Shown one piece after another: positions 2,892 to 36,159 of a DNA stretch of 37,527 nt. Under the pieces are notes generated by a model. That model was not told where the DNA came from. It did no database searches and saw nothing but the letters and a program-made list of their open reading frames with translations. Numbering within the stretch: position 1 is the stretch's first letter; the number at the start of each line of letters is the position of its first letter. The translations under genes and the position numbers were made by a program. The stretch comes from a virus (taxonomy: Duplodnaviria > Heunggongvirae > Uroviricota > Caudoviricetes): IMG/VR virus record IMGVR_UViG_2737471866_000010. One strand, given 5' to 3'.

Positions 2892-3970
2892 CAGAACGGG
2901 TCCTCCTGTACTCTGGCTTTTTTCTTTTTCCGCGCGCCGGGGGCTTCGGGTTCAGGCAGATAAGCATCAGGTGGGCCGACACGGATTTCCGTCAGGGTGC
3001 CGTTCTGGTCCTGAGTAAACGTGACTTCCGAGACAAGCAGTTCGGTATTGTCGAAACCACAGACCGGATCGAAGACAATCACCCGCTGGTTGGGCTGCCA
3101 CAGCGTACCGTTACCCTGTCGCCAGCCCTGCACCACATAGGTGGTTTCATCCGTCCGCGCCGCCCGTTGTCGGGCTTCAAAGTCAGCACGCGCAATACAG
3201 CCTGCCCCCGTGGCCTGCCCTGTCTGCCTGATATACATCGGACGGTAACGGGCAATAAATGCGTCCTCTGTGCGGGCCCGCAGCGCGGTGGTGGTGGCCT
3301 CACCGAAATCATCGTCGTTTCCGGCACGCTGCCCCGCCACCTGGTAAACAGAAAACCGCTCCCGGATACTCTTCTCCGTATCGCAGGAAAGGATGTTTTC
3401 CCCGAGTACCAGCGCGGTATGTGCCCGCGTTGAGCCAATACCGCCAATCACCAGCCTGCCGTGCGGGTCGTCGTAAGCCAGTGCCTGCTGCTGACCGAGT
3501 ATTTTGTTGATCACCTCAATCACCGTTTCGCCGTGATCAGGCTGGACATCAGGAATAACACCCGACGGCGCACCGTTGTTCACCACCTCAATGCCGAAAG
3601 GCGCAGCAAGCGCCTGCGCAATCTGTACCAGCGATCGTCCGTTAAACTGTGTCGGTTCGGCTGCACAGTCAATCAGGTCAGCGGTCAGACTACGTCCGGC
3701 AATACCGGTGCTGACCGAACGGGCATCGTAACGAACGGGGGTCGCCTCCACCCAGCCGGTGATCACCAGCTCATCACCAATCAGCACTTCCACTTTTGAA
3801 CCATTTTTAATGCGCGGCTGAAGCGTGGTGATACCATCATCTCCCGGCCACTGGCGGGTGATCTCCACACTGAAATCCCGCGCCAGTCGTTCAACACCGG
3901 CACCGATGCGCACCGATGTCCAGCCATTCCACTCCCGGCCATTTACCCGTAGCGTGACATTGTCGTTCAT
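2891..3970 (-). CDS. Tail/baseplate hub protein (Mu gp44 / P2 gpD-like)
   Basis: 359-aa ORF following the DNA circulation gene, as in Mu. Confidence 0.55.
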   Translation of the reverse strand: MNDNVTLRVNGREWNGWTSVRIGAGVERLARDFSVEITRQWPGDDGITTLQPRIKNGSKVEVLIGDELVITGWVEATPVRYDARSVSTGIAGRSLTADLIDCAAEPTQFNGRSLVQIAQALAAPFGIEVVNNGAPSGVIPDVQPDHGETVIEVINKILGQQQALAYDDPHGRLVIGGIGSTRAHTALVLGENILSCDTEKSIRERFSVYQVAGQRAGNDDDFGEATTTALRARTEDAFIARYRPMYIRQTGQATGAGCIARADFEARQRAARTDETTYVVQGWRQGNGTLWQPNQRVIVFDPVCGFDNTELLVSEVTFTQDQNGTLTEIRVGPPDAYLPEPEAPGARKKKKARVQEDPF

Positions 3971-5295
3971 TGCACTGGCACCTTCAGAGGGATCACCGGC
4001 ACAAAGCCGGGATGCGTAATGGCATTACGCCGGATAATGTCCGCGTCACGCGCCGCGTTATCAAACCAGGTCGCCGCCAGCACCAGCGCGGGTAAAACCT
4101 CATCAGGTGTGCGCTGAATGATCCGTGCAGACTGTTCAAGGCGCGTGTTGATATCCGCATTCAGATCTGCTTTCACCCGGCGCAGCGCCAGAAACAGCGC
4201 ATCACTGGTTGTACGGGACAACTCCTTATCAATTGCCGTATTCAGTGTGTCGCGAATGTCGGTCAGTTCTTCCCACGTTGGCAGGTCAACCGTGTTTTTC
4301 ACCGCCGGTGCATTGTTCAGTGCCGGATGCGTGACGGAAGGCCAGCCGGAGCTCTGCGCGGGTGTTGTTGACTGCCCCACTGCGGCATTCTGCATCACCG
4401 CAGAAGTTGTTAGCGCAGGCAATCGGGTAACGGCATACGCCGCTTCGCTGATTGCAGTCGTACGAAGGGTGCTGGCAACCACGTTACGCTGCTGAGTCGC
4501 CGTGGCGGTGGTTTTACTGTCCGTTTTCCAGACGCCGCGCGGTTGCAGATCGCTGCCAAGGCTGACACCGGAAAGCGTTTTGATCATGGTGACCAGGTCG
4601 CTGGTGTTACCATAAAGGCGTTTCCCGGTACGCCACATTTTCTGCACCTGCTCAACGAAATTTTTGCCTGACGATGGCGGCGGCAGAAGTACCGAGATAT
4701 CCCCCTGCAACAGCCTGGCGGCATCCGATACGGCAGAATCCACCACTTTCATCGCATCAGAAACATACCCAAGCATTATGCTGGCATTACCGATAACGTC
4801 GTTCTGCACGAAATCCGCCACGCCATCGATACTGAAACCGCTGAAGCTGTCACTGATGCAGTCATCCAGTGCAGAACAGGATGACATCAGCGTCTGCGCC
4901 GTCGCCGCACCTGAAGTGGGGTAAGAGAGTTCTCCCGCTTCGACAAACTTCAGGTCAAAGCGGACAATACGCCCTTCACTTTTCGATGTGCTGACCCGAA
5001 CTTCACCGTCAACACAGACTTTCAGCTCACCATATGTCGGGTGGACAAGCGTGCCGGGACCGGGTTTATTCAGCGCTTCAATCAGGCGATCGCGCTGGTC
5101 AAAGCAGTCATCTCCTACCACATAAGCTGTGATGGACGGGCGGAAAGTGACTTTTCCCAGATCTTCGGTATAGGGCTTGTCGCGGTTCGGGTATTCATGT
5201 GTTTCCACACGGCGACCGGTTCCCGCACTTTCTTCTTCAACCTTAAACGGTACGCCGCGAAATGACGCGTCCTGAAGCCTGTCTTTCCACGTCAT
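3967..5295 (-). CDS. DNA circulation protein N-like (Mu gp43-like)
   Basis: 442-aa ORF immediately downstream of the tape measure region in a Mu-type tail module. Confidence 0.55.
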   Translation of the reverse strand: MTWKDRLQDASFRGVPFKVEEESAGTGRRVETHEYPNRDKPYTEDLGKVTFRPSITAYVVGDDCFDQRDRLIEALNKPGPGTLVHPTYGELKVCVDGEVRVSTSKSEGRIVRFDLKFVEAGELSYPTSGAATAQTLMSSCSALDDCISDSFSGFSIDGVADFVQNDVIGNASIMLGYVSDAMKVVDSAVSDAARLLQGDISVLLPPPSSGKNFVEQVQKMWRTGKRLYGNTSDLVTMIKTLSGVSLGSDLQPRGVWKTDSKTTATATQQRNVVASTLRTTAISEAAYAVTRLPALTTSAVMQNAAVGQSTTPAQSSGWPSVTHPALNNAPAVKNTVDLPTWEELTDIRDTLNTAIDKELSRTTSDALFLALRRVKADLNADINTRLEQSARIIQRTPDEVLPALVLAATWFDNAARDADIIRRNAITHPGFVPVIPLKVPVQ

Positions 5296-28238: not shown

Positions 28239-28825
28239 GCGTTAGTTTCTCCACAACCAGAAGCAATCGACGCCACGACGCCCGGAGCTGCACACTCGCG
28301 GGCGTCATTACTTTCTGAAATGCAAAAAATTTTGTAGACAAGTGCTGCATGCTCCTGCAGCTTCGAAATCGAGAGATACAGCTCGTCGTTAATTGCTGTC
28401 TTCTCATGCGGTTCCACTACACCGTCTTCGATTGCTGAACGAATCTGTTTTGAATAACTGCCGATCTGTTCAATGACTTCCAGCAGACGCTGGTTAATAT
28501 CGGCGTTGTCCACATCCTCGACGTCAGGAAGAGACACAAAGACGCCATTTGCAGACTGCGCCACAGCGTCAGCAATGAAGTGAGTTCCACCAGCACGTTG
28601 CAAAATCATTGCCCATCCCAGCGGGAAAATCTGATCGCCATCGGCACGAAGGCGGTTAAATAATGCGTTCTCTGTTACATCCAGCCAGTCAGCAGCTTCA
28701 GCGTAACCCCCCGGCAACGCTGCGATAGTTTTTCTGACAGCTTTCACGTACCACTTAGGCTGTTTTTCTACTTTCCAGTGATGCTTACCCACGGCTATCT
28801 CCTTAAAACTGTGGTTACTTTTCAT
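28235..28825 (-). CDS. CII-like transcriptional activator (phage 186 CII / CP76 family)
   Basis: Start at internal ATG (M25) just after the cro stop; [36 protein letters not shown] parallels 186 CII (LRNKLNPEQPHQFTPPELWLLTDLTEDSTLVDGFLAQ) as recalled. Confidence 0.5.
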
Positions 28826-29063
28826 CTGATGAATCTTTAATCTTTTGAAAAATATCTGGACGTAATTTTTCTTTTGATATGCCAGTGGTCTTTTCAATGA
28901 ATATCGAGAGCTTTGCAGGGGGACGCTTTTCTCTGTTCAACCAGTTCCAGACATGTTGTTGCTTTACTAAATGACCGCTGCTGGCTGTGAGCTTCCGAGC
29001 CAATTCTGATTGACCACCAGCCAGAGCGATTGCCTCCGATAAGGCTAATTGCTCAGGTGTCAT
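28815..29063 (-). CDS. cro: Cro-like HTH regulator
   Basis: 82-aa ORF divergent from the CI repressor across an operator-rich 135-bp region; HTH-like segment SQSELARKLTASSGHLVKQ. Confidence 0.6.
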   Translation of the reverse strand: MTPEQLALSEAIALAGGQSELARKLTASSGHLVKQQHVWNWLNREKRPPAKLSIFIEKTTGISKEKLRPDIFQKIKDSSDEK

Positions 29064-29198
29064 AGCTTTCTCCTTTTTAGGTAGTTAAGTTGTTACGAGT
29101 TGCAAGAATACAACATTAACAACTTTTATCACAACTTTTAGGTGTTGGAAAGCTAAAACATAAAGTTGTAACCTCATCAAAAAAGAGAGGGATATGTT
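29064..29198. promoter_or_regulatory. OR-like operator/promoter region between cro and cI
   Basis: Divergent gene starts; repeated ACAAC/GTTGT half-sites; 12-mer ACATAAAGTTGT and ACAACTTnnAGGTGTT shared with the second site near 30800-30890. Confidence 0.5.
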
Positions 29199-29885
29199 GT
29201 GAAAACACTGGCAGAACGATTAAAGATAGGTAGAGAGAAAGCTGGCATGAGCCAAGCTCAACTAGCTGAAAAAATTGGACTTTCACAACAATCTGTAGCC
29301 AAAATAGAGAATGGCGAAACTCTACAACCGCGCAAAATTAAAGAAATTGCAAAAGTTTTAGGTGTATCACAAAAGTGGTTACAACTTGGTATTGAAGACA
29401 ACGCATCCATACCTGATCTTGTTGTAAAAGAAGCAGAAAGCACCGCATTAGACCCCGATATTTTCGTAAACATTCCTGTTTTAGATGTCGAGTTATCGGC
29501 AGGTAACGGATGTCTGGCTGAAATAGTTGAATCAGCTATTGACTGGTTTCCATTAAGAAGAGCAGATTTGAGAAAATCTGGCGTATGTGCATCTAATGCC
29601 AAGATCGTAAAAATATGGGGGAACAGTTTATTACCGGTTCTCAATAATGGAGATCTTGTTGCCGTTGATATTTCTCAAACCGTTCCTATTCGTGATGGCG
29701 ATCTTTATGCCGTACGAGATGGTGTATTGCTAAGGGTTAAAATACTTATCAACTTACCTGACGGTGGCTTGATTCTTAGAAGCTTCAACAAAGATGAGTA
29801 CCCAGATGAAATACTCACCTTTGAAGATAGACGAGCCAGAATTCATGTTATAGGTAGGGTATTCTGGTCATCGCGAACTTGGTAA
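29199..29885 (+). CDS. cI: CI-type repressor (HTH-XRE plus S24 LexA-like peptidase domain)
   Basis: 228-aa ORF with GTG start after AGAGAGGGA; N-terminal HTH (MSQAQLAEKIGLSQQSVAKIENGE) and C-terminal autocleavage-type domain (A-G pair in LSAGNG, GNSLLP Ser motif, later Lys). Confidence 0.85.
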   Translation: MKTLAERLKIGREKAGMSQAQLAEKIGLSQQSVAKIENGETLQPRKIKEIAKVLGVSQKWLQLGIEDNASIPDLVVKEAESTALDPDIFVNIPVLDVELSAGNGCLAEIVESAIDWFPLRRADLRKSGVCASNAKIVKIWGNSLLPVLNNGDLVAVDISQTVPIRDGDLYAVRDGVLLRVKILINLPDGGLILRSFNKDEYPDEILTFEDRRARIHVIGRVFWSSRTW

Positions 29886-30758
29886 TGCATCGAAAAGCAT
29901 TTCTTCAGAAATAATTTTAAGTTTTGCACCATTATCATCCCTATAAGATATAGCCTTTTCGATCTTCCTTCCGTGACTTGAGAATTTCCAATCACGGGAG
30001 GAAAGCGTCCCAATTACTAAAAAATCCAACTTTTGAGTAATTCCACTACTGATGTTCCCACCAGCATTTTTAATCAAATTTTCAACTACGGCTCTCTTTC
30101 CTGCAACAAAAGTGCCTGTAAGACAATAGGTTTTACCCTCTAACTCTATCGAAGCCCCTACATCAATAGGCAGCCTGGTCGCCAAACCATCCACCACCCC
30201 ACTTTCCAAGTCACATCCTGTGAAGTCTACTAATGCCTTATGTAGAGTTAAACTCTCATCTTCAGTAATAACACCATCTTTAAGAATTTCCTTTACAAGT
30301 GCATAAAGTTTTTTTCCTGGGTAGTTGTTCTTCAAAGCTCCATTTTGCTCAAGCCACCAATTAAGATATCTTATTTCTTCTTGAGTTAAGTTCCGATCAG
30401 CAATTAATCCTTTACATAGTCCATTAAGTAAATGGACATCTACATCCTTGGAGTAAAAATCAATTTCAGGGATATCAAGAATTTCCCTCTGTATTTGGAG
30501 AAGGCTATTTTTAAGGTCATCACGTTCTTCTGATGTGATTATTCCATCCGCAAGAATATCCGACACCCGTGCTGATAGACTTTTTATAACTCCATTATTG
30601 ATAATCTGCTTTGCTTCAAGTAACCATGTATCTAAGTAAAGAACCTCCTCTTCACGGACAACTCCATCTGCAATGATTCCATCAATGATGCTAATCAAGT
30701 TAGCAAATAACTTGTCCCGGTTCTGTGTGTAATTAAAAGCGTAAAGCGCGTCTTCCAT
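29868..30758 (-). CDS. BRCT-domain protein with four N-terminal ~40-aa helical repeats; moron in the rex-like position
   Basis: Start at internal ATG (M11) preceded by AAGGAGG; repeats carrying DG[VI][IV]T/REEE; C-terminal GKTYCLTGTF...LDFLVIG...KLKIISEEMLFDAL resembles the BRCT domain of NAD-dependent ligase; AT-rich; convergent with cI, overlapping its 3' end by 18 nt. Confidence 0.6.
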   Translation of the reverse strand: MEDALYAFNYTQNRDKLFANLISIIDGIIADGVVREEEVLYLDTWLLEAKQIINNGVIKSLSARVSDILADGIITSEERDDLKNSLLQIQREILDIPEIDFYSKDVDVHLLNGLCKGLIADRNLTQEEIRYLNWWLEQNGALKNNYPGKKLYALVKEILKDGVITEDESLTLHKALVDFTGCDLESGVVDGLATRLPIDVGASIELEGKTYCLTGTFVAGKRAVVENLIKNAGGNISSGITQKLDFLVIGTLSSRDWKFSSHGRKIEKAISYRDDNGAKLKIISEEMLFDALPSSR

Positions 30759-30799
30759 ACAACCTCCTTTTTTTGATAATCCTTGCACTCCTTGGCTAC

Positions 30800-30890
30800 T
30801 CGTTCAAACCACATAAAGTTGTTGACAACATTCAAAACCACAACTAAATTACAACTTAAAGGTGTTAAAACAACGAACAGGCAGGACGCC
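30800..30890. promoter_or_regulatory. OL-like operator region with candidate PL promoter (-35 TTGACA 30822-30827, -10 TAAATT 30845-30850, plus strand)
   Basis: Shares ACATAAAGTTGT and ACAACTTAAAGGTGTT with the cro-cI operator region; consensus -35 with 17-bp spacer to a -10-like hexamer, directed toward the early-left genes. Confidence 0.45.
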
Positions 30891-30966: not shown

Positions 30967-31011
30967 GCTCTTTAACAATCTGGTCCCCATCAACAAGTAA
31001 CTGATAACTTG
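30967..31011 (+). promoter_or_regulatory. boxA-like element (GCTCTTTAACAA) followed by a small hairpin in the early-left leader
   Basis: 12-mer matching the rrn-type boxA consensus, about 110 nt downstream of candidate PL and before the first early-left ORF; hairpin caagt-aactgata-acttg. Confidence 0.3.
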
Positions 31012-31023
31012 AGGAGGTGTGAA

Positions 31024-31230
31024 ATGCACAAAACAGAACCCAAAATCGTCGCGCCTGGCTACACAGATGAGGAAATTTATGAGTGGATGACAAAGAAGCT
31101 GGCAGCTATAAACCAGCTTCGTGAAGTGCTGTCTTATCGACAGGAAACAATAGACTCCTTAAAAAAACTGGATCAGGAAATCACGGTTTTATCACAGGAT
31201 GTTACTTTAGATATTGTGCAGACAAATTAG
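31024..31230 (+). CDS. Small hypothetical early-left protein (68 aa)
   Basis: Start at internal ATG (M6 of ORF 31009..31230) preceded by GAGGAGG; not Arg-rich, so not N-like. Confidence 0.4.
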   Translation: MHKTEPKIVAPGYTDEEIYEWMTKKLAAINQLREVLSYRQETIDSLKKLDQEITVLSQDVTLDIVQTN

Positions 31231-31636
31231 GATCCCATTCATTTTCGTCAAAATCATCAAAGTGATGAATTTGTGATCTCCAGTCTCGATAATCTAAAAA
31301 TTTCTGGGCGGTTACGCTTATTTTATCAAGTGTGAGTTCATCCTGAATTGAAAGAAGAAGTTCATCAAATTTCATCTCATTAATCTGTTTTGGCATCCAG
31401 TGATGCTTCATCAGAATAAGGTGAACCAGAGCCTTTTTCCCATTCAACTGATTATAGGGAGTGCCGAATTTCTTCCGGTGCTCATGTAAGACAAGGTCCA
31501 GAAGAGTAAGTAATGTTGCCCTTGATTCAACTTTGCTTATTTCGACTGATGACACTACCCCACTGATTTCAATGCCCCGATACTTTCCAACATTTTCACA
31601 GTGGGATTTGTACAGCGTGTAGATATTACCGGACAT
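31202..31636 (-). CDS. Hypothetical protein, AT-rich moron antisense to the early-left operon
   Basis: 144-aa ORF with ATG after AAAGGAAAAG; visibly lower GC than neighbours; opposite orientation to surrounding early genes. Confidence 0.45.
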   Translation of the reverse strand: MSGNIYTLYKSHCENVGKYRGIEISGVVSSVEISKVESRATLLTLLDLVLHEHRKKFGTPYNQLNGKKALVHLILMKHHWMPKQINEMKFDELLLSIQDELTLDKISVTAQKFLDYRDWRSQIHHFDDFDENEWDPNLSAQYLK

Positions 31637-32104
31637 TTCTTTTCCTTTTGCATTGTTGGGGATAACCAGATTAACCGAATCCTTGTTGTTGGGGAATAAC
31701 CAGGTCCACCTCGCCTGATGTGGCTAAAAGCAGGCACATAACAGCTAAGTATTTTCAACCAGAGAGAATCCTTAGCGTTGTGGTGAATGCGGCTCAGCGC
31801 ACGCGGGTTAAGGTTGAGGCTGACAGTCGACCTTCTGTGGATACCCACCCGCCTGGTGTGCAACCTTCGCCAGGCACCGGGAGGCACCCGGCACCACAAC
31901 TTTATGCTGTGTGTAGTCTTGGCGGTACCAGCTTGTACCCTTGCTTCCGGCTGGTACCGTCCTTTTTACAAAACAGAGAAGAGCATCACCGGACGACGGG
32001 CTCATAACCCAATCCATCCGGGCGGCAGTCACCGCAGGTGTTCTTCTCTGTTTTGTGGAGAAACTAACCGACCTTGCAGGGTCGATATGATGAGGAGCAG
32101 CAAA

Positions 32105-32467
32105 ATGGCTAGCGAACGCAGTACTGATGTGCAGGCATTTATCGGGGAGCTGGACGGCGGCGTATTTGAAACCAAAATCGGCGCAGTTCTCAGTGAAGTC
32201 GCTTCCGGTGTGATGAACACGAAAACCAAAGGTAAGGTCTCGCTCAACCTAGAAATCGAACCGTTTGATGAGAACCGAGTGAAAATCAAACACAAACTCT
32301 CATATGTTCGCCCGACTAACCGCGGGAAAATTTCCGAAGAAGACACCACCGAAACGCCGATGTATGTCAATCGCGGTGGTCGCCTGACTATTCTGCAGGA
32401 AGACCAGGGACAGTTGCTGACTCTTGCCGGTGAACCTGACGGAAAACTCCGCGCAGCAGGTCGTTAA
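32105..32467 (+). CDS. YfdP-like hypothetical phage protein
   Basis: Start at ATG preceded by GAGGAG (M107 of ORF 31787..32467; the upstream extension is not protein-like); size and synteny with the following YfdQ/R/S/T-like genes. Confidence 0.4.
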   Translation: MASERSTDVQAFIGELDGGVFETKIGAVLSEVASGVMNTKTKGKVSLNLEIEPFDENRVKIKHKLSYVRPTNRGKISEEDTTETPMYVNRGGRLTILQEDQGQLLTLAGEPDGKLRAAGR

Positions 32468-32532: not shown

Positions 32533-33357
32533 ATGTCTCAGAACTTAGACGCAACCGCAATTAATCAAATCCATGCCCTTATTTCTGCTCAGGGTGTTAA
32601 TGAAATTATCAGTAAGATTGGTGCCGATGCTGTGGCATTGCCTGAGAATTTCTGCATTCATGATCTGGAAAAATTTAATTTAAATCGCTTCCGTTTCCGT
32701 GGTGCGCTTTCCACTGCCAGCATCGATGACTTTACCCGTTATTCTAAAGATCTTGCAGATGAAGGCACCCGCTGCTTTATCGATGCTGATAATATGCGTG
32801 CCGTCAGTGTGCTTAACCTAGGTACTATTGATGAACCAGGTCACGCAGATAACACCGCCACACTCAAACTGAAAAAGACAGCACCGTTCTCTGCTCTGTT
32901 GTCTGTTAACGGCGAGCGTAACTCCCAGAAGTCACTAGCAGAATGGATTGAAGACTGGGCCGACTATCTTGTGGGCTTTGATGCTAATGGTGACGCTATT
33001 CAGGCAACAAAAGCGGCTGCGGCTGTCCGTAAAATCACGATTGAAGCAAACCAGACCGCTGATTTTGAAGATAATGACTTCAGCGGCAAACGCTCCCTGA
33101 TGGAGTCTGTCGAAGCGAAGACCAAAGACATTATGCCAGTGGCATTTGAATTTAAATGCGTTCCGTTTGAAGGTCTGAAAGAACGTCCGTTTAAATTACG
33201 CCTCAGTATTATCACTGGCGATCGTCCTGTACTGGTTCTGCGCATTATTCAGCTGGAGGCGGTGCAGGAAGAAATGGCTAACGAATTTCGTGATCTGCTT
33301 GTTGAGAAATTCAAGGACAGCAAAGTAGAAACCTTTATTGGTACTTTCACCGCCTGA
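32533..33357 (+). CDS. YfdQ-like protein (DUF2303 family)
   Basis: 274-aa ORF; length and synteny match the CPS-53 yfdQ position; assignment from memory. Confidence 0.5.
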
Positions 33358-33484
33358 TTTCATTACTGCAAATGCCCCTGCGGGGGCATTTATGGAATCG
33401 TAATTTACTCAATAATCGCCGGATGGTGAGGGATTCTTTTTACCAGAATTCAGCGCGGTGCAGCGCATATACGTGGAGAACAAA

Positions 33485-36083: not shown

Positions 36084-36159
36084 TGGTGCCGATAATAGGA
36101 GTCGAACCTACGACCTTCGCATTACGAATGCGCTGCTCTACCAACTGAGCTATATCGGC
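36084..36159 (-). tRNA. thrW: tRNA-Thr (anticodon CGU), thrW
   Basis: Reverse complement reads GCCGATATAGCTCAGTTGGTAGAGCAGCGCATTCGTAATGCGAAGGTCGTAGGTTCGACTCCTATTATCGGCACCA: 7-bp acceptor stem, D and T arms, CGT anticodon, 3' CCA. Confidence 0.9.

Follow-up and report, generated by a model that had tools for sequence, protein, structure and literature searches.

Our analysis shows that the GC-rich gap at positions 31637 to 32104 of the tailed-phage record IMGVR_UViG_2737471866_000010 (37,527 nucleotides, called the window throughout) is non-coding and carries several independent modules, the most structured of which are features of the plus strand RNA. The gap lies between a leftward gene for a 144-aa 'ECs1072-family' protein and yfdP, in an early region that is 98.8% identical to SfIV, and the host element is an SfIV-like lambdoid prophage. 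Its main parts are a core that, judged by sequence and covariance model, is a divergent and near-threshold variant of the known STnc100/PasD RNA family, a short single-stranded segment identical to the most conserved part of the Escherichia coli small RNA (sRNA) RprA, an intrinsic terminator directly behind it, and a long branched hairpin in the 5' untranslated region (UTR) of yfdP. The features located in the gap are the following:

31653-31669 (TTGTTGGGGATAACCAG) and 31686-31703 (TTGTTGGGGAATAACCAG), no strand assigned: two direct repeats (direct repeat family D1)
31707-31735, no strand assigned: module A, 29 nt, CACCTCGCCTGATGTGGCTAAAAGCAGGC (exact-pattern scan)
31744-31776, plus strand: P0 hairpin, GCTAAGTATTTTC / GAGAATCCTTAGC, preceding the core (inverted repeat I4 and minimum free energy fold)
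31777-31785 / 31892-31900, plus strand: P1, closing helix of the STnc100-family core (31777-31900)
within the core, plus strand: invariant junction AAU, then the P2 hairpin
within the core, plus strand: P3, a short closing helix around a variable insert
31810-31816 (AAGGTTG) with 31861-31867 (CAACCTT), plus strand: pseudoknot, pairing the segment that follows P2 with the P4 loop
31851-31857 / 31869-31875, plus strand: P4
31877-31891, plus strand: P5, CCGGG-AGGCA-CCCGG, invariant
31905-31920, plus strand: single-stranded TGCTGTGTGTAGTCTT, between core and terminator
31921-31967, plus strand: Rho-independent terminator t2, stem GGCGGTACCAGC / GCTGGTACCGTC, then CTTTTT (inverted repeat I5 and fold)
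31968-32056, plus strand: three-way-junction RNA of the yfdP 5' UTR, built of a long basal stem and two arms, one conserved (CCGGACGACGGGCTCATAACCCAATCCATCCGG) and one variable
32057-32107, plus strand: translation-initiation leader of yfdP, GGAGAAACTAACC, with a hairpin at 32067-32086, the Shine-Dalgarno (SD) sequence GAGGAG at 32092-32097 and the ATG at 32105

The initial annotation of this DNA had described the gap as GC-rich, devoid of a protein-like frame and dense in strong hairpins, and our results bear this out. The GC content is 0.575-0.58 across 31700-31999 versus 0.34-0.43 in the flanking genes; no conserved open reading frame (ORF) was found in 31640-32105, and no candidate ORF there matches Pfam. 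All three hairpins that it listed lie at the positions given. The hairpin near 31925-31959, listed as a 9-bp stem, is a perfect stem of 10 bp (CGGTACCAGC 31923-31932 / GCTGGTACCG 31950-31959), the CCGGG-AGGCA-CCCGG hairpin is present, and the 15-bp perfect inverted repeat (31968-31982 / 32042-32056) extends to 25 nt with 84% complementarity. On the plus strand, 31740-31970 folds at -95.5 kcal/mol (z = -3.7), with none of 200 shuffles as good, and 31960-32110 has z = -6.0. That the gap may encode a structured RNA is upheld for the plus strand, since two separate domains show covariation and an Rfam model aligns over its full length with a score near its threshold. The picture of a single element stands in part: a folded core exists on the plus strand, but the leftmost ~100 nt (31637-31743) lie outside it, and the gap consists of several independent modules and not of one.

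The STnc100-family core and the hairpin of the yfdP leader

At its gathering thresholds, Rfam detected nothing in the window but the tRNA-Thr gene, and the leads to STnc100 and DicF came from E-value mode. In this mode the STnc100 model (RF02076) aligns along its entire length (model 1-206 of 206) to 31747-31970 with 43.4 bits (E = 6e-8), which does not reach its gathering threshold (GA) of 47 bits; a canonical STnc100 copy elsewhere (L220) passes with 61.8 bits. Our own covariance model R1 scores 84.7 bits on the core, and the conserved blocks UGGUGAAU and CACCGGGAGGCACCCGGCACCA, both invariant in alignments A1 and A2, are in register with the Rfam consensus. The likeness to STnc100 and to PasD1 and PasD2 of enteropathogenic E. 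coli prophages covers the full-length alignment, the closing helix, the GGUGAAU junction, the invariant ACCGGGAGGCACCCGGCACC hairpin, the 3' intrinsic terminator, which would give a ~200-nt RNA, and the prophage location. In contrast to STnc100, P2 of the window copy is of the form GCG.../...CGC ('type II', also seen in phage P1, SJ46, ST64B, e14 and phiES15) and not CCCC.../...GGGG, the copy lies in an early-left operon leader and not in the interval from Q or stx to the lysis genes, it carries P0 as an additional stem and has the RprA seed as its pre-terminator linker, and its pseudoknot is missing from the Rfam structure line. PasD1/2 were related to STnc100 by Zhu et al., and they are Hfq-dependent, Northern-validated RNAs with RIL-seq targets (PMC8550237; bioRxiv 10.64898/2026.05.13.724894).

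The helices of the core were defined by RNAalifold together with the covariance model. In alignment A3 (143 distinct sequences), double changes occur in 19 of the 24 pairs and 97.7% of the cells are paired, a percentage that is optimistic, and for which P5 is uninformative, because model fitting shaped the alignment and the P5 motif served in part to select its sequences. None of 500 shuffles was as high, slid controls were 41-48% paired, and the varied pair types of P1, P2 and P4 are no artefact of alignment fitting. For the pseudoknot, cognate duplexes average -9.4 kcal/mol versus -6.6 kcal/mol for non-cognate ones (p = 1e-20), and the swaps AAGGUUG:CAACCUU, UGGUUAU:AUAACCA and ACUGGAUA:UAUCCAGU are seen. 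Since G-U pairs are frequent at P4 (AU 53, GU 52), the functional strand of the core is the plus strand.

The same core occurs in e14, ST64B and Cronobacter phiES15 (in phiES15 upstream of kil and gam), in P1 and SJ46 upstream of tciA, and in Stx2 phages between stx2B and a downstream 634-aa esterase-like ORF, which we take to be nanS-p from published descriptions of the locus; mEp460 and phage LLS have divergent versions in the corresponding position. When species-representative genomes were scanned with an invariant 20-mer, 112 distinct cores across Enterobacterales were recovered, 52 of which have a terminator within 90 nt, and a well-placed sigma-70 match accompanies 11 of 94 core copies versus 2.5 in shuffles. 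The contexts that we catalogued comprise copies with their own promoter and terminator, operon leaders, copies abutting tRNA genes and arrays in Q-lysis regions. Clustering the ORFs downstream of the 112 copies revealed no partner protein: these ORFs are of many kinds, among them a 13-member cluster of 233-aa proteins (KdgM-type porins to judge by eye), holin, endolysin, tciA and yfdP, and therefore neither a partner nor the logic of a metabolite riboswitch is indicated.

Further STnc100-like RNAs came to light beside this core. Head-to-tail arrays of up to seven units are located between Q and the holin/endolysin/Rz genes of Pantoea prophages (L094 4132-5932, minus strand; also L078, L088, L051 and L040), with a period of ~120-130 nt and some units abutting without a spacer. 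Transfer RNA genes follow within a few nt of STnc100-like units in L093 (4059-4187 and 4615-4747) and L102 (4787-4902), and the helix order, with the closing stem, a 3-nt junction, P2, P3, P4 and P5 directly against the closing stem's 3' strand, resembles the layout of class II tRNAs, an analogy that may hint at shared processing. A conserved STnc100-like subgroup is chromosomal and found in Kosakonia, Klebsiella, Raoultella and Enterobacter, 27-194 nt upstream of the gene for a 233-aa protein (L019, L033, L039, L042, L044, L052, L056, L065, L080, L090, L105, L119, L128 and L129) that resembles, judged by eye only, a KdgM/NanC-type outer-membrane porin. STnc100-like RNAs would coincide in this way with sialic-acid genes, namely the porin-like gene and the nanS-p ORF of the Stx2 phages. 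Two candidates were set aside: a weak R1 hit of 14.5 bits in the yfdQ-yfdR spacer (33357-33472; L005 5439-5554) was judged to be noise around the simple hairpin AAUGCCCCUGCGGGGGCAUU, which is probably a plain intergenic hairpin or terminator, and svsR, an sRNA of the NC-SV prophage, is not the window element, being located at the 3' end of cI.

The second covarying domain is the three-way junction at 31968-32056. RNAalifold on 13 diverse homologs gave 32 pairs, seven of which show double compensatory changes. One U-G pair is invariant and would become A-C on the opposite strand, so that this structure is a feature of the plus strand RNA; it could possibly be a processing site or a translational control element. 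Its apex motif is present in at least 120 viral contigs. In the Buttiauxella prophages L096 and L099, GUGGAGAA, the leader hairpin and the SD sequence stand directly after the core, and t2 and the long hairpin are absent, whereas in other phages the terminator and the long hairpin accompany a core that is different or divergent, so that the modules can be separated. An embedded insertion had been raised in the initial annotation, and relative to L096 and L099, core and yfdP leader are indeed ~150 nt further apart in the window (between TTTATG and TGGAGAA), the additional sequence being the seed, the terminator and the long hairpin.

The RprA-seed segment and its terminator

The 16 nt at 31905-31920, unique on the plus strand of the window, are identical at 16 of 16 positions to nt 62-77 of E. 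coli RprA (used as printed in PMC7311995 and PMC5606850: ...AACGAAUUGCUGUGUGUAGUCUUUGCCCAUC...). They fall inside RprA60-105, and the Rfam RprA consensus is written in upper case, that is, most conserved, precisely over this 16-mer. Both the conserved 3' seed of RprA, AUUGCUGUGUGUAGUCUU, and a directly adjoining terminator are present, the terminator beginning at 31921. It has been demonstrated that RprA60-105 is a highly conserved region which alone is sufficient for csgD repression, that the compensatory pair csgD CAGC(-87..-90) / RprA GCUG falls within the 16-mer, and that ydaM pairs with RprA nt 45-75 (Mika et al., PMC3465796). Upstream of the seed, the window has no similarity to RprA nt 1-59 and carries the STnc100-like core instead. 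Within the window, matches complementary to the seed have three mismatches, which is the level of chance.

The 9-10-bp GGTACCAGC hairpin is an intrinsic terminator with a U-tract, a termination signal having been one of the readings offered for the gap. The 5' arm of the hairpin is DicF-like, UUGGCGGUAYCAG being common to the window and DicF, and the DicF model (RF00039) gives 19.4 bits against a GA of 48. In comparison with RprA (RF00034), the window thus shares the most conserved and functionally validated seed and a terminator at the same offset, but the terminator sequence is different, and the phage copy is borne within an operon while RprA is a chromosomal, RcsB-controlled locus. With DicF of the dicB operon in the Qin prophage, the window shares a terminator-bearing RNA element in an early-left type operon upstream of kil/dicB-like genes (the order here being cI - morons - element - yfdPQR...torI - int); it differs from DicF in its seed, and DicF is without an STnc100-like 5' domain.

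The 16-mer is conserved in e14 and phiES15 despite unrelated terminator hairpins there, ST64B has one mismatch, and in phage LLS the identity to RprA runs for 26 nt, the terminator is RprA-like and the Rfam RprA model reaches 39.7 bits. The 16-mer cassette is found in at least 120 viral contigs. Among the matches listed, a hairpin with a U-run lies within 0-3 nt of the 16-mer in 91 of 92 distinct contexts and takes the form of 41 distinct stems, which indicates that the unpaired segment is conserved and that the hairpin retains its shape alone; in the same contexts an STnc100-like P5 hairpin stands just upstream in only 18 of the 92. The cassette also occurs directly after the stop codons of plus strand genes (for example L259, L264 and L266), after module A where the core is absent (L220 and L242), and together with a genuine DicF terminator (L311, DicF 61.6 bits). 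In the set anchored on the downstream hairpin, 42 of 83 contexts among the matches listed hold the seed with two mismatches or fewer, and the remaining contexts have other linkers on the same terminator scaffold. Such linker variation is the pattern that would be expected, from sequence comparison, of an sRNA locus with exchangeable seeds. A literature search, itself of incomplete coverage, found no earlier description of an RprA-seed cassette or an RprA mimic in phages.

The early-left setting and the left end of the gap

The genes and the promoter that surround the gap are:

28815-29063, minus strand: cro
29199-29885, plus strand: cI
29868-30788, minus strand: gene for a 306-aa BRCT-domain protein
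30822-30850, plus strand: probable pL promoter (TTGACA-17-TAAATT) with OL operator half-sites (promoter scan, 10/12 match)
31009-31230, plus strand: 73-aa ORF
31202-31636, minus strand: gene for the 144-aa 'ECs1072-family' protein
31637-32104: the gap, followed by yfdP (ATG 32105), yfdQ, yfdR ... torI/xis and int
36087-36159: tRNA-Thr(CGU) gene, beside which the prophage is integrated

Half-sites of the AAGTTGT type near pL are also present in the cro-cI intergenic region (29064-29198). Because these operator half-sites recur next to the TTGACA-17-TAAATT promoter, pL/OL can be placed at ~30800-30870, and the gap is therefore part of the early-left transcription unit, ~890 nt downstream of pL, which is the likely source of plus strand transcripts across it. 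The gene for the 306-aa protein lies between cI and pL in antisense orientation, and Pfam finds a BRCT domain at the C-terminus of its product (E = 1.4e-6). This gene resembles a moron and is possibly related to defence; at its place the immunity region of the closest E. coli prophage (L001) is different.

At the left end of the gap, the two direct repeats are flanked by the start of the leftward 144-aa gene on one side and by the conserved 29-nt module A on the other. The same or analogous paired repeats (of the CCCCAACAA, CCCCTACAG and CCACAGTCAA types) adjoin different leftward genes in many viral contigs, and the 144-aa gene could have its repeats in its 5' UTR or promoter cassette. Module A was recovered by an exact-pattern scan in at least 120 viral contigs (L132 onward), with 90 distinct contexts among the matches listed. 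Its pattern, CACC-NN-GCCTGA-N-GTGG-NN-AAAAG(A)CAGGC, is near invariant across very different temperate enterobacterial phages, and the leftward moron genes that it adjoins are diverse, the junction with their start regions (an SD sequence and a hairpin, or paired repeats) being fixed. On the plus strand the sequence 3' of module A varies and may be a core, a terminator or a gene, and in phage LLS the module lies ~15-50 nt downstream of pL without a leftward gene (L131 2144-2172). Module A might be a nut- or put-like RNA site or a minus strand extended -10 promoter for the neighbouring moron. The P0 hairpin that precedes the core has an equivalent AAGAGC.../...GCTCTT stem in P1, L046, L091, L096 and mEp460, and in relatives the stem encloses variable insertions.

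Possible function and competing explanations

Going by sequence, we give about even chances to the reading that the gap encodes a phage sRNA which ends at t2, has an STnc100-type 5' domain and acts in trans by base pairing as a mimic of the RprA seed. The gap would then be the non-coding leader of the early-left operon (yfdP-yfdQ-yfdR ... torI/xis-int) and would encode a composite plus strand RNA. Transcripts from pL or from further upstream would stop at 31963-31967 and give rise to a discrete sRNA, which might be trimmed to a short 3' fragment, as RprA60-105 and DicF are. An exposed seed followed by a U-tailed terminator is the standard architecture of Hfq-dependent base-pairing sRNAs, and the phage RNA would be predicted to pair, assisted by Hfq, with the mRNAs that RprA recognises via the 16-mer, csgD and ydaM/dgcM being validated RprA examples. 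The STnc100-type core would form the structured 5' part and perhaps serve as a stabilising or processing domain, and transcripts reading through t2 would carry the three-way junction (31968-32056) as the 5' UTR of yfdP. A seed mimic is supported by the fact that the PasD1/2 relatives are experimentally supported sRNAs and that the matching segment of RprA is functional. The position of the locus is moreover like that of dicF, a terminator-bearing sRNA in an early-left type operon, and in phiES15 the element stands directly before kil.

Several observations weigh against this proposal. The RprA model (RF00034, GA 70 bits) gives no hit at E <= 10 on 31880-31985 of the window, where it is silent because the terminator is DicF-like instead. 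The window RNA is without the RprA 5' half, with its rpoS-pairing region (about nt 38-63), and without the RprA terminator, which contributes to csgD anti-site Ia, and therefore its overlap in targets with RprA may be partial. No promoter was found by the scan immediately upstream of the core in the window, the nearest candidate being pL; pL is repressed in the lysogen, so that the RNA may be produced only on induction. No function has been assigned to the STnc100 family in the literature, and an intrinsic terminator before an operon needed for excision also fits a role in cis. Lastly, the only direct RNA evidence concerns the e14 homolog and is an abundant 35-nt species on the opposite strand (PMC4398507).

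The role in cis just mentioned would be that of a checkpoint, an attenuator or a put/nut-like antitermination module gating the passage of polymerase from pL to yfdP...xis-int, and the 'sRNA' would then be a mere by-product of termination, like lambda 6S RNA. We consider this unlikely, although it is favoured by the location of the element between pL and the first early-left gene in phages without an N-like ORF there. Phage LLS has two intrinsic terminators (~2199-2236 and 2470-2506) and ~550 nt of conserved non-coding RNA, with no ORF, from pL to yfdP, and the first of these terminators is also present in ST64B and L099 (two-terminator leader sites in LLS and its relatives: L131 2199-2236 and 2470-2506; L003 about 3960-3990; L099). 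The terminator after about half of the core copies and the STnc100-like units, in arrays of up to seven, between the Q antiterminator gene and the lysis genes point in the same direction, and near-invariant motifs across genera would suit the binding of a conserved host machine, for example RNA polymerase. However, core, seed-terminator cassette and hairpin occur independently, which speaks against a single integrated switch, no antiterminator pairing is conserved, because the terminator stems are wholly different between homologs, and some core copies have a promoter and terminator of their own. The put RNAs of HK022 are cis-acting antiterminators that follow pL and pR, and the window resembles them in that a lambdoid phage without an N gene has a structured RNA in its pL leader, upstream of terminators, but put is a ~70-nt two-stem element, whereas the window modules are separable; there is no sequence or model similarity to put, since R1 finds nothing in the HK022 early region (L009) and the module A pattern is absent there. 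A checkpoint would also leave the identity of the linker to the RprA seed unexplained. It is improbable, in turn, that the functional strand is the minus strand, on which a leftward transcript, from a long 5' UTR of the 144-aa moron or from read-through from the int side for example, would carry AAGACUACACACAGCA, the perfect complement of the RprA seed, and act as an anti-RprA sponge, as do AgvB and AsxR, which are anti-sRNAs of prophages. The RNA GAAAAAACTGGTACCGCCAAGACTACACACAGCAT is among the two most abundant e14-derived small RNAs in K-12, in a study whose reads are sense for tRNAs, 5S, 4.5S, 6S and tmRNA (PMC4398507); it maps to L002 5199-5233, opposite ymfH/xisE/intE, and a perfect complement of RprA would be equally conserved. 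Yet no promoter-like site was found on the minus strand in 31640-32200, and an A-run before the hairpin with no U-run after it leaves this strand without an sRNA-like 3' end. In many contexts, the cassette stands right after a plus strand stop codon and ahead of another plus strand gene, the G-U pairs of the core and the invariant U-G of the long hairpin fit the plus strand alone, and the fold of 31740-31970 has z = -1.95 on the minus strand versus -3.7 on the plus strand. The 35-nt K-12 RNA itself, which was reported both intracellularly and extracellularly (PMC4398507), is antisense to the seed and the 5' arm of the terminator (window about 31903-31937) and complementary to RprA nt 60-77, and it is conceivable that it comes from read-through out of lit across int and xis.

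Two further explanations do without a functional RNA. A small non-autonomous mobile insertion of the miniature inverted-repeat (MITE-like) type, or a recombination site, as had also been suggested for this DNA, would account for the mosaic architecture with its ~150 extra nt relative to L096/L099, for the long inverted repeat and for the recurrence of the modules in varied combinations. This is very improbable: we found no evidence for a recombination site and neither terminal inverted repeats nor a clear target-site duplication at the module boundaries, an E. coli genome contains few copies (median 1, maximum 5) and these are linked to prophages, and the compensatory and G-U changes reflect selection on RNA pairing. 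Least credible is a small protein gene of a YmfH family. It is true that ymfH is annotated in K-12 e14 on DNA 90% identical to this region, its coding sequence (L002 5076-5387) spanning the e14 core, seed, terminator and long hairpin, and that PGAP calls a 'hypothetical protein, frameshifted' pseudogene at the equivalent site in the near-identical prophage L001. Moreover, a 'ymfH' clone was scored as a trigger of the retron-Sen2 toxin RcaT (bioRxiv 10.1101/2020.06.22.160242). But tblastn with YmfH finds its pieces in frames 1, 2 and 3 of the window, stops occur in every frame in ST64B, LLS and phiES15, there is no Pfam family, the composition is rich in Arg, Pro, Gly and Cys, and substitutions track base pairing rather than codons. 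The e14 annotation is probably spurious, and the effect of the clone on RcaT may be due to the RNA.

As for its wider meaning, the STnc100/PasD family gains a defined fold of five helices and a pseudoknot together with a catalogue of contexts. A mis-annotated RNA locus in place of ymfH would alter the reading of screens with a 'ymfH' clone, such as the retron-Sen2 trigger screen, and in LLS-type leaders xis and int would have to be expressed from pL past two terminators without an N-like ORF. Returning to the sRNA that would mimic the RprA seed, we propose more tentatively, at somewhat less than even odds, that temperate enterobacterial phages widely carry a portable seed-terminator sRNA cassette, about half of the copies being RprA-seeded, and that these would inject RprA-like regulation on induction or infection; the alternative reading is the converse, that the conserved 3' half of RprA and DicF descend from the phage cassette. 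If the proposal holds, the phage would exert RprA-like regulation independently of the Rcs signal that normally controls RprA, and repression of csgD and dgcM would be expected, with less curli and biofilm and possibly other effects. Known prophage anti-sRNAs act in the opposite manner and sponge host sRNAs. An active cassette would clearly exemplify a phage that copies the sequence by which a core host sRNA finds its targets, and it would tie prophage induction to the Rcs/RpoS/curli network.

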